Below, one piece after another: positions 37,011-37,889 of a stretch of 64,000 bases of DNA (position 1 is its first letter; every line of letters begins with the position of its first letter). A model generated the notes under the pieces. It did no database searches and was not told the origin of the DNA. It saw only the letters and a list, made by a program, of their open reading frames with translations. The position numbers and the translations under genes were made by a program. The DNA is from Escherichia coli (GTDB lineage: Bacteria; Pseudomonadota; Gammaproteobacteria; Enterobacterales; Enterobacteriaceae), in NCBI RefSeq assembly GCF_024502345.1, contig NZ_JALDNN010000001.1; one strand, given 5' to 3'.

Positions 37011-37889
37011 TTATTTCAGCGTGCCGAACTGTTTGTCTTTCAGTGCATATAGTCGGTCGAACTCAGCATAGGGCTCTCCCGTTTCAGCCGCGTGCCGGGT
37101 TTTAGCATCCAGAAGGTCGGGTAAAGGGATCCTATGATTCAGTGAGTGGTAAAGATCATAACCACTGACACAGATAACCCGCTTCCCTTTACCAAAAGCC
37201 GTCAGGCCTTCAGGCGTAAACCCCATCCAACTGATAAAAACACCGCGTGTCCAGGTTGCCTTGGTACTGAGTTTTCCTTCAAATACATGGAGGTCGGCAG
37301 CCGACGTTCTTTTCTGATGCCACTTTGCCTCCATCAGGTAAAATTCATCATTCAGCCGGAAACTTCCGTCAATCTGTTCTCCTGTATTTCGGAAAGACGA
37401 ACGAGGAGCAAGCTTAAAGATACTGAACAGTTCAGCAAGCCAGGCTTCAAACCGAAAACCACGTGGATGTGGCGGCAGAGATTTCATCTCGTTCATTTCA
37501 GCGATAAGTGAATGCCAGTCAACACCATGCCATGCCTGGACAGGCTTAACGCCTTTGGCTTCATCGGTGTCAGCGTTTTCTAAGCGGGAAATCAGTGCAA
37601 GATAGTCATTACGGCTTTGTTCAGCCTGTTCAGGCATGGATTCCGTTTTATACTGCCAGAGCGCACCAAGAACCCGCAGAGCGGTCTCACGATCAACCTG
37701 TTTCAGCAAGCATCTAACTCGTTTGGCTTTTGACGCCCCCTCTTTCTGATAACGTTCATCATCAATATCAATGTTCAATTCTTCATCGAAAAAAGCAGAC
37801 AAGGTGCGGTTAGAGAAATCCAGTATCCAGCCAGGATCGCTCTCGAACACGATATTAAACAGCCTCAAATCCTGCATTTTCAGTTTCAC
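37011..37889 (-). CDS. Mrr-like PD-(D/E)xK restriction-endonuclease-fold protein with unknown N-terminal domain
   Basis: C-terminal half has GFRFEAWLAELF…GEQIDGSF…EFYLMEAKW (D…EAK catalytic pattern). Confidence 0.5.
   Translation of the reverse strand: MKLKMQDLRLFNIVFESDPGWILDFSNRTLSAFFDEELNIDIDDERYQKEGASKAKRVRCLLKQVDRETALRVLGALWQYKTESMPEQAEQSRNDYLALISRLENADTDEAKGVKPVQAWHGVDWHSLIAEMNEMKSLPPHPRGFRFEAWLAELFSIFKLAPRSSFRNTGEQIDGSFRLNDEFYLMEAKWHQKRTSAADLHVFEGKLSTKATWTRGVFISWMGFTPEGLTAFGKGKRVICVSGYDLYHSLNHRIPLPDLLDAKTRHAAETGEPYAEFDRLYALKDKQFGTLK

Follow-up and report, generated by a model that had tools for sequence, protein, structure and literature searches.

A predicted Mrr-type nuclease behind an AbiJ-NTD2-like module on an Escherichia coli genomic island: a candidate sensor-effector defence protein

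Fusions of an AbiJ-NTD2 domain to a restriction endonuclease of the Mrr family were predicted computationally by Anantharaman, Makarova, Burroughs, Koonin and Aravind (2013, Biol Direct 8:15; PMC3710099, Table 2, example gi 91784007). In that table, AbiJ-NTD2 is a mostly helical domain of ~100 aa with a conserved strand beside the first helix, and the paper places it ahead of AbiJ-type HEPN, Ymh HEPN, Mrr restriction endonuclease and TIR domains. The type member of AbiJ-NTD2 is BF1118 of B. fragilis (gi 60680647), and that of NTD1 is Bcep1808_2091 (gi 134296193). The authors proposed that the NTDs bind viral targets, a sensor-type mode put forward for the whole AbiJ-NTD class, and they noted that the old Pfam DUF3644 model took in AbiJ-NTD2 sequences (PMC3710099). 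In the searchable literature, the N-terminal module considered here is mentioned only in that paper, and the remaining papers on DUF3644 deal with true HEPN proteins. For lactococcal AbiJ, escape mutations in a phage ssDNA-annealing protein have been reported, and recent work gives no mechanism (PMC13064643). Here, we compare with these systems a gene in a 64,000-nucleotide stretch of E. coli DNA (the whole stretch analysed, hereafter the window). Its features, with the two flanking elements given for context only, are as follows.

37011..37889, minus strand: complete coding sequence, 292 aa plus stop, identical to WP_001519098.1 ('restriction endonuclease')
37895..37900, minus strand: Shine-Dalgarno sequence AGGAGG, 5 nt ahead of the GTG start codon, read straight off the sequence
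37578..37889, minus strand: N-terminal module, residues 1-104, best fit AbiJ-NTD2, predicted sensor or regulatory module
37719..37733, minus strand: conserved S53-K54-x-x-R57 motif at the start of helix 54-64
37518..37577, minus strand: variable linker, residues 105-124, with little conservation of either length or sequence
37047..37517, minus strand: PD-(D/E)xK (Mrr_cat-type) nuclease domain, residues 125-281, including a leading helix and a conserved C-terminal helix (K263, R265, E269)
37446..37448, minus strand: E148, acidic residue of the active-site helix, invariant (61/61)
37368..37370, minus strand: D174 in the motif GEQIDGSF, invariant (61/61)
37323..37331, minus strand: E187-A-K189, the ExK of YLMEAKW; E invariant (61/61), K in 59/61 and R in the remaining 2
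36404..36996, minus strand: IS256-family transposase remnants (pseudogene), abutting the 3' end and stop codon of the gene
38217..38948, minus strand: inovirus Gp2 family ('YagK-like') gene, 327 bp upstream on the same strand

The annotation of the product as a 'restriction endonuclease' is correct but uninformative. The gene starts with GTG, and this start is supported by homologs from other genera, whose first residues fall in the same alignment column (MKLK/MKFT...). Since 780 homologs were found in one search and the nuclease subfamily comprises 2662 representative clusters at E<=1e-3, the reading frame is far beyond chance. The GC content of the gene is 47.8%, within a mosaic stretch that ranges from 37 to 53%, and its DNA is 100% identical in many complete E. 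coli chromosomes, including that of O25b:H4-ST131.

The preliminary description of this DNA had read the C-terminal half as an Mrr-like PD-(D/E)xK nuclease on the strength of a restriction-endonuclease signature, and had left the N-terminal ~140 aa unassigned. The quoted motifs are present in the protein (GFRFEAWLAELF at residues 144-155, IDGSF at 173-177 and YLMEAKW at 184-190), and a profile search recovers the nuclease fold, with Mrr_cat as the sole Pfam match (residues 144-248, E 6.5e-5). The same model (PF04471) matches 58 of 61 diverse full-length homologs at E<=1e-3, the best at 1.1e-10. The AlphaFold2 model, built from the 61-sequence alignment, is very confident (mean pLDDT 94.2, pTM 0.83); its C-terminal domain shows the restriction-endonuclease-like alpha/beta core fold and carries the E...D...ExK catalytic set of PD-(D/E)xK nucleases. 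The nuclease reading is thus borne out by both the structure prediction and the conserved catalytic residues, and the C-terminal domain is a member of the PD-(D/E)xK Mrr_cat family and a predicted nuclease. The subfamily can be recognised by the signature GEQIDGSF...YLxEAKW...K.R.AAETG. Scans of the whole protein with NCBIfam, PADLOC and PHROGs returned nothing useful, and searching the PDB by sequence, whether with the protein or with the family profile, returned noise only.

The N-terminal region was rightly left without a family name, as residues 1-140 have no match to a Pfam, NCBIfam, PADLOC or PHROG model. The AlphaFold2 model nevertheless folds the module confidently, as a helix (residues 5-15), a strand (16-18) with the conserved segment G20-W-I-L23-D-F25-S (in the family, G-[YW]-[VI]-L-[DN]-F-[ST]), and a helical bundle to about residue 104; the variable linker and a helix leading into the nuclease follow. 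In the alignment of 61 homologs, the conserved residues of this region are G20, L23, F25, F33, S53, K54, R57 and L77. The conserved strand and the S-K-x-x-R motif could form a candidate binding site for a phage protein, a nucleic acid or a small ligand. NCBI and UniProt label the N-terminal part 'DUF3644', and N-terminal-only fragments (P0121, P0332 and P0044 in our set) and AFDB entries are named 'DUF3644 domain-containing'. We rejected the HEPN reading that this label implies: the current Pfam DUF3644 model matches neither the protein nor its homologs, no conserved His was found in the homolog alignments, and comparison with the PDB gave no structural relative of the module and no HEPN fold match above noise.

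The same N-terminal module occurs in front of other effectors. A profile of residues 1-135 matches 3310 proteins, and among the 120 of them listed, 25 carry PF14355 (Abi_C), 2 PF09509 (Ymh) and 13 Mrr_cat; HKD fusions were not found among the matches listed. Many of these cousins are 250-276 aa long, and where the E. coli protein has its nuclease they have PF14355 (Abi_C, a HEPN RNase domain) or PF09509/TIGR02391 (Ymh, HEPN). Their Rx4-6H motifs follow an N-terminus that can be aligned with that of the E. coli protein residue for residue. The signature residues of the module are kept in 11-12 of 12 HEPN-type cousins, the S and K of S-K-x-x-R among them, and these two also in 58-59 of 61 nuclease-type homologs. 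A Foldseek search of the module against AFDB50 added fusions to TIR, Cap12/Pycsar-TIR and DUF4145. The N-terminal module is autonomous. The nuclease subfamily, in turn, is also joined to several other N-termini, the commonest being an unrelated module of ~155 aa (alignment A4; e.g. P0179, P0184 and P0186) with the consensus LYxFLPGS...GSKxPAI...KIPEL.DP.FL.SLP and without a Pfam model, whose hhalign probability against the module described here is 13.5%; rarer fusions are to Tle1-like and COR-B domains, with a weak Band_7 match. Because each half occurs with several partners, both halves of the protein behave as exchangeable modules. The A4 module was considered as AbiJ-NTD1 and rejected: it is paired only with Mrr_cat in 122 matches and is therefore not the promiscuous NTD1.

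One relative found by Foldseek belongs to pandemic Vibrio cholerae: the AFDB entry A0A2Z4TJK2 of V. cholerae O1 El Tor (280 aa, 'abortive infection protein') has the same N-terminal module (E 1.8e-5, TM 0.74, 37% identity).

We consider it fairly probable that the gene encodes a self-contained, two-module sensor-effector defence protein, carried as mobile-element cargo and acting in an abortive-infection-like manner. In this prediction, the AbiJ-NTD2-like module of ~100 aa would sense a cue from an invader, most likely a phage protein or nucleic acid, and would restrain the C-terminal Mrr-type PD-(D/E)xK nuclease until that cue arrives; the released nuclease would then cut the DNA of the invader, the host or both, and the degradation of DNA would halt the infection. 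The prediction draws direct support from the nuclease fold, the conserved catalytic residues and the exchange of effectors behind the same N-terminal module, and likewise from the lack of a conserved partner gene and the carriage on mobile elements beside defence genes. From these we infer nuclease activity, activation by a trigger, the kind of trigger and a protective phenotype; the trigger and the autoinhibition in particular are conjecture. More tentatively, the AbiJ-NTD2-like module might be a general infection sensor or switch in front of DNase, RNase and TIR effectors.

The surroundings in the window are those of a mobile island. The gene had been placed between an IS256 remnant and a YagK-like gene in an island, and we found both flanks, within a CP4-type island that adjoins cadC and holds a YfjP-like GTPase, an antirestriction protein, RadC and CbtA/CbeA. 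In other genomes, the genes found upstream of homologs bear no relation to the Gp2 family gene. In the same island, 8 kb from the nuclease gene, lies a five-gene defence operon (18676-29115, minus strand).

26143-29115, minus strand: DrmD-like SNF2 helicase
25056-25994, minus strand: AbiD
23200-25062, minus strand: AbiU/AIPR-like protein
21439-23142, minus strand: type III methyltransferase
18679-21414, minus strand: type III restriction enzyme

This operon combines type III restriction-modification with AbiD, AbiU and a DISARM-type helicase. Other observations concern the architecture of the island. Two inovirus Gp2-type genes (32031-32597 and 38217-38948, both minus strand) and an H-NS-family gene (34809-35249, minus strand) are kept apart by fragments of IS21, IS256 and IS3, which suggests that two CP4-like modules were fused or rearranged through IS activity. 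Between the Gp2-family gene and the YfjP-like GTPase sits a convergent pair of hypothetical genes (40616-41503, plus strand; 41500-42447, minus strand) that overlap by 4 bp, encode 295 and 315 aa and have a low GC content of 38-42%; neither matches a PADLOC or NCBIfam model. In ST131, RefSeq annotates a 21-aa 'EAST1 family heat-stable enterotoxin' reading frame (19845-19910 of our locus L001), the equivalent of which in the window (about 36744-36809, minus strand) falls inside the IS256-family remnant. We presume that the remnant beside the nuclease gene may be IS1414-like and carry a truncated astA.

The gene is accessory: it is carried by 467 of 5426 complete E. coli genomes, nearly always on the chromosome. 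Outside these chromosomes, the contexts of homologs were as follows.

Pectobacterium: ICE, with TraG/TraU and ArdC as neighbours
Enterobacter: IncFII plasmid, with EcoRII restriction-modification and a resolvase
Acinetobacter: AlpA island, no informative neighbours
Aeromonas: element not classified, with HipA fragments
Photorhabdus: Tn3-family element, with a resolvase
Klebsiella: IncR plasmid, with VapBC
Sinorhizobium: conjugative plasmid, with a PLD-like gene and an AbiH gene

No neighbour gene is conserved across the contexts sampled. Two candidate partners were rejected, as the upstream gene in Pectobacterium is unrelated to the Gp2-family gene of the window and the ~186-aa downstream genes of Enterobacter and Acinetobacter are unrelated to each other. 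No cognate DNA methyltransferase, the mark of a type II restriction-modification system, was found adjacent to the gene. A HEPN cousin lies directly 3' of a type IIG restriction-modification gene. In IMG/VR the family is rare, with 20 loci (5 with both domains, 4 with the nuclease only and 11 with the N-terminal module only), and at one locus the gene is 2 kb from a prophage integrase.

These contexts also bear on the possibility that the protein is a toxin serving its mobile element, through addiction, post-segregational killing or competition with rival plasmids or islands, rather than an anti-phage defence of the host. Such a role would suit the abundance on plasmids (1420 records, of which 344 are near full length and 654 lie on conjugative plasmids), the proximity to VapBC on the IncR plasmid and to CbtA/CbeA-type modules in islands, and the absence of the gene from all 50,697 sequenced phage genomes. 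However, a conserved adjacent antitoxin gene or RNA, as in toxin-antitoxin systems, was not found, the neighbours being unrelated between contexts. An RNA antitoxin or regulatory RNA was looked for near the nuclease gene and rejected: there are no tandem repeats or repeat array and no Rfam family, and the promoter and terminator counts stand at the level of shuffled sequence. Moreover, addiction by a single protein with no antidote would require self-inhibition, which leads back to the sensor-effector model. We therefore regard the toxin role as unlikely.

Also improbable is a type IV (modification-dependent) Mrr-like enzyme, in which the N-terminal module would serve as a reader of modified DNA and cleavage by the nuclease would be constitutive, without an abortive component. 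The protein lacks Mrr_N and any other reader domain of the winged-helix, SRA or YTH type, and the matches to AspBHI and MspJI cover the shared catalytic fold only. The N-terminal module is, in addition, joined to HEPN RNases and TIR domains, which would have no use for a reader of modified DNA.

It is more improbable again that the gene is inert cargo, either unexpressed or catalytically dead, left over in an IS-ridden island that is decaying. The flanking IS remnants would fit such a relic, as would the 327-bp spacer 5' of the gene, in which no clear or consensus promoter was found, so that expression is only putative; truncated alleles are in circulation as well, and many of the copies on plasmids have been cut down by IS elements, which shows that the gene can often be spared. 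The missing promoter and these truncations count against the sensor-effector prediction too. On the other hand, the reading frame is intact, with at least 99% DNA identity in 421 E. coli records, the Shine-Dalgarno sequence is strong, and the catalytic and module signature residues are all kept in homologs down to ~31% identity, which indicates purifying selection on the family.

A separate observation concerns one of the truncated forms. An unannotated remnant of residues 155-292 only, at ~85% identity, is found on hundreds of plasmids of Klebsiella and Enterobacter (H35-H44 in our set, e.g. NZ_MK347230.1 101290-101703). Because these remnants are always cut at the same point, a single ancestral truncation that then spread is suggested.

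At its start codon, the nuclease gene is overlapped by a serine-resolvase gene or fragment in two of the divergent homologs (L006 5354-6004, on the Enterobacter IncFII plasmid, and L018 6859-7011, on the Photorhabdus Tn3-family element). That the protein is a recombination or resolution nuclease partnering the site-specific recombinases of plasmids and transposons is nonetheless highly improbable, and a functional link to the resolvases was rejected, since BLAST gave no match between the two, the upstream DNA of the window and of four other contexts shows no trace of a resolvase, no recombinase is adjacent in most contexts, and the other partners of the N-terminal module are RNases and TIR domains.

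If the sensor-effector protein is active, it would be an unrecognised defence gene on a widespread E. coli island, including that of pandemic ST131, and on many Klebsiella and Enterobacter plasmids. It is missed by a defence-finder model set, as the protein matches no PADLOC model and the HEPN cousins likewise are not recognised as AbiJ. An active protein would also offer the first experimental handle on a module that, across thousands of bacterial proteins, controls effector domains of three classes, and if the sensor reading is true, the E. coli protein, found in ST131 and on many plasmids of Klebsiella, would be a convenient entry to a mode of sensing shared by thousands of single-gene defence proteins. 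If it is inactive, it would be merely a 'restriction endonuclease' domain protein, annotated correctly, on an island in decay. The main value of the gene would be as an experimental entry point to the N-terminal module.

Compared with known systems, the protein differs from E. coli Mrr (type IV) and AF1548 (PDB 1Y88) in its N-terminus, where an unrelated module stands in place of the winged-helix (Mrr_N) DNA-binding domain of Mrr. Unlike the CARF- and SAVED-nuclease effectors (Can1/Can2, Card1, Cap4 and NucC), it has no CARF or SAVED domain and is accompanied by no cyclase or CRISPR genes. With the DUF3644 HEPN proteins (the EC042_2821 family, HEC-08 and Ishtar) it shares the database label; those are true HEPN RNases with Rx4-6H, whereas the module here has neither a conserved histidine nor a HEPN fold match above noise. 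The lactococcal AbiJ and Abi_C (PF14355) HEPN proteins are closer, with the same single-polypeptide layout of an N-terminal accessory module and a C-terminal effector that degrades nucleic acid, and many Abi_C proteins have exactly the N-terminal module described here. The effector of the E. coli protein, however, is a DNase-fold domain and not an Rx4-6H HEPN RNase, and there is no PADLOC AbiJ match. The link to lactococcal AbiJ itself is one of nomenclature only, and the AbiJ escape mutations are not transferable to the E. coli protein.

The closest likeness is to the predicted AbiJ-NTD2 and Mrr fusions. Both have a helical N-terminal module of ~100 aa with a strand after helix 1 and a C-terminal Mrr-type nuclease, both modules also stand ahead of AbiJ-type HEPN, Ymh and TIR domains, and both have been mislabelled 'DUF3644'. 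One difference is the DUF4145 fusion found here, which is not in the 2013 list for AbiJ-NTD2 and was given then for NTD1 (PMC3710099). The module is very likely AbiJ-NTD2, as judged against the published description, and its place within the wider AbiJ-NTD class of swappable N-terminal modules is firmer than the NTD2 label. On sequence grounds, the gene is most likely a new member of the class that was predicted computationally in 2013 in a single table row.
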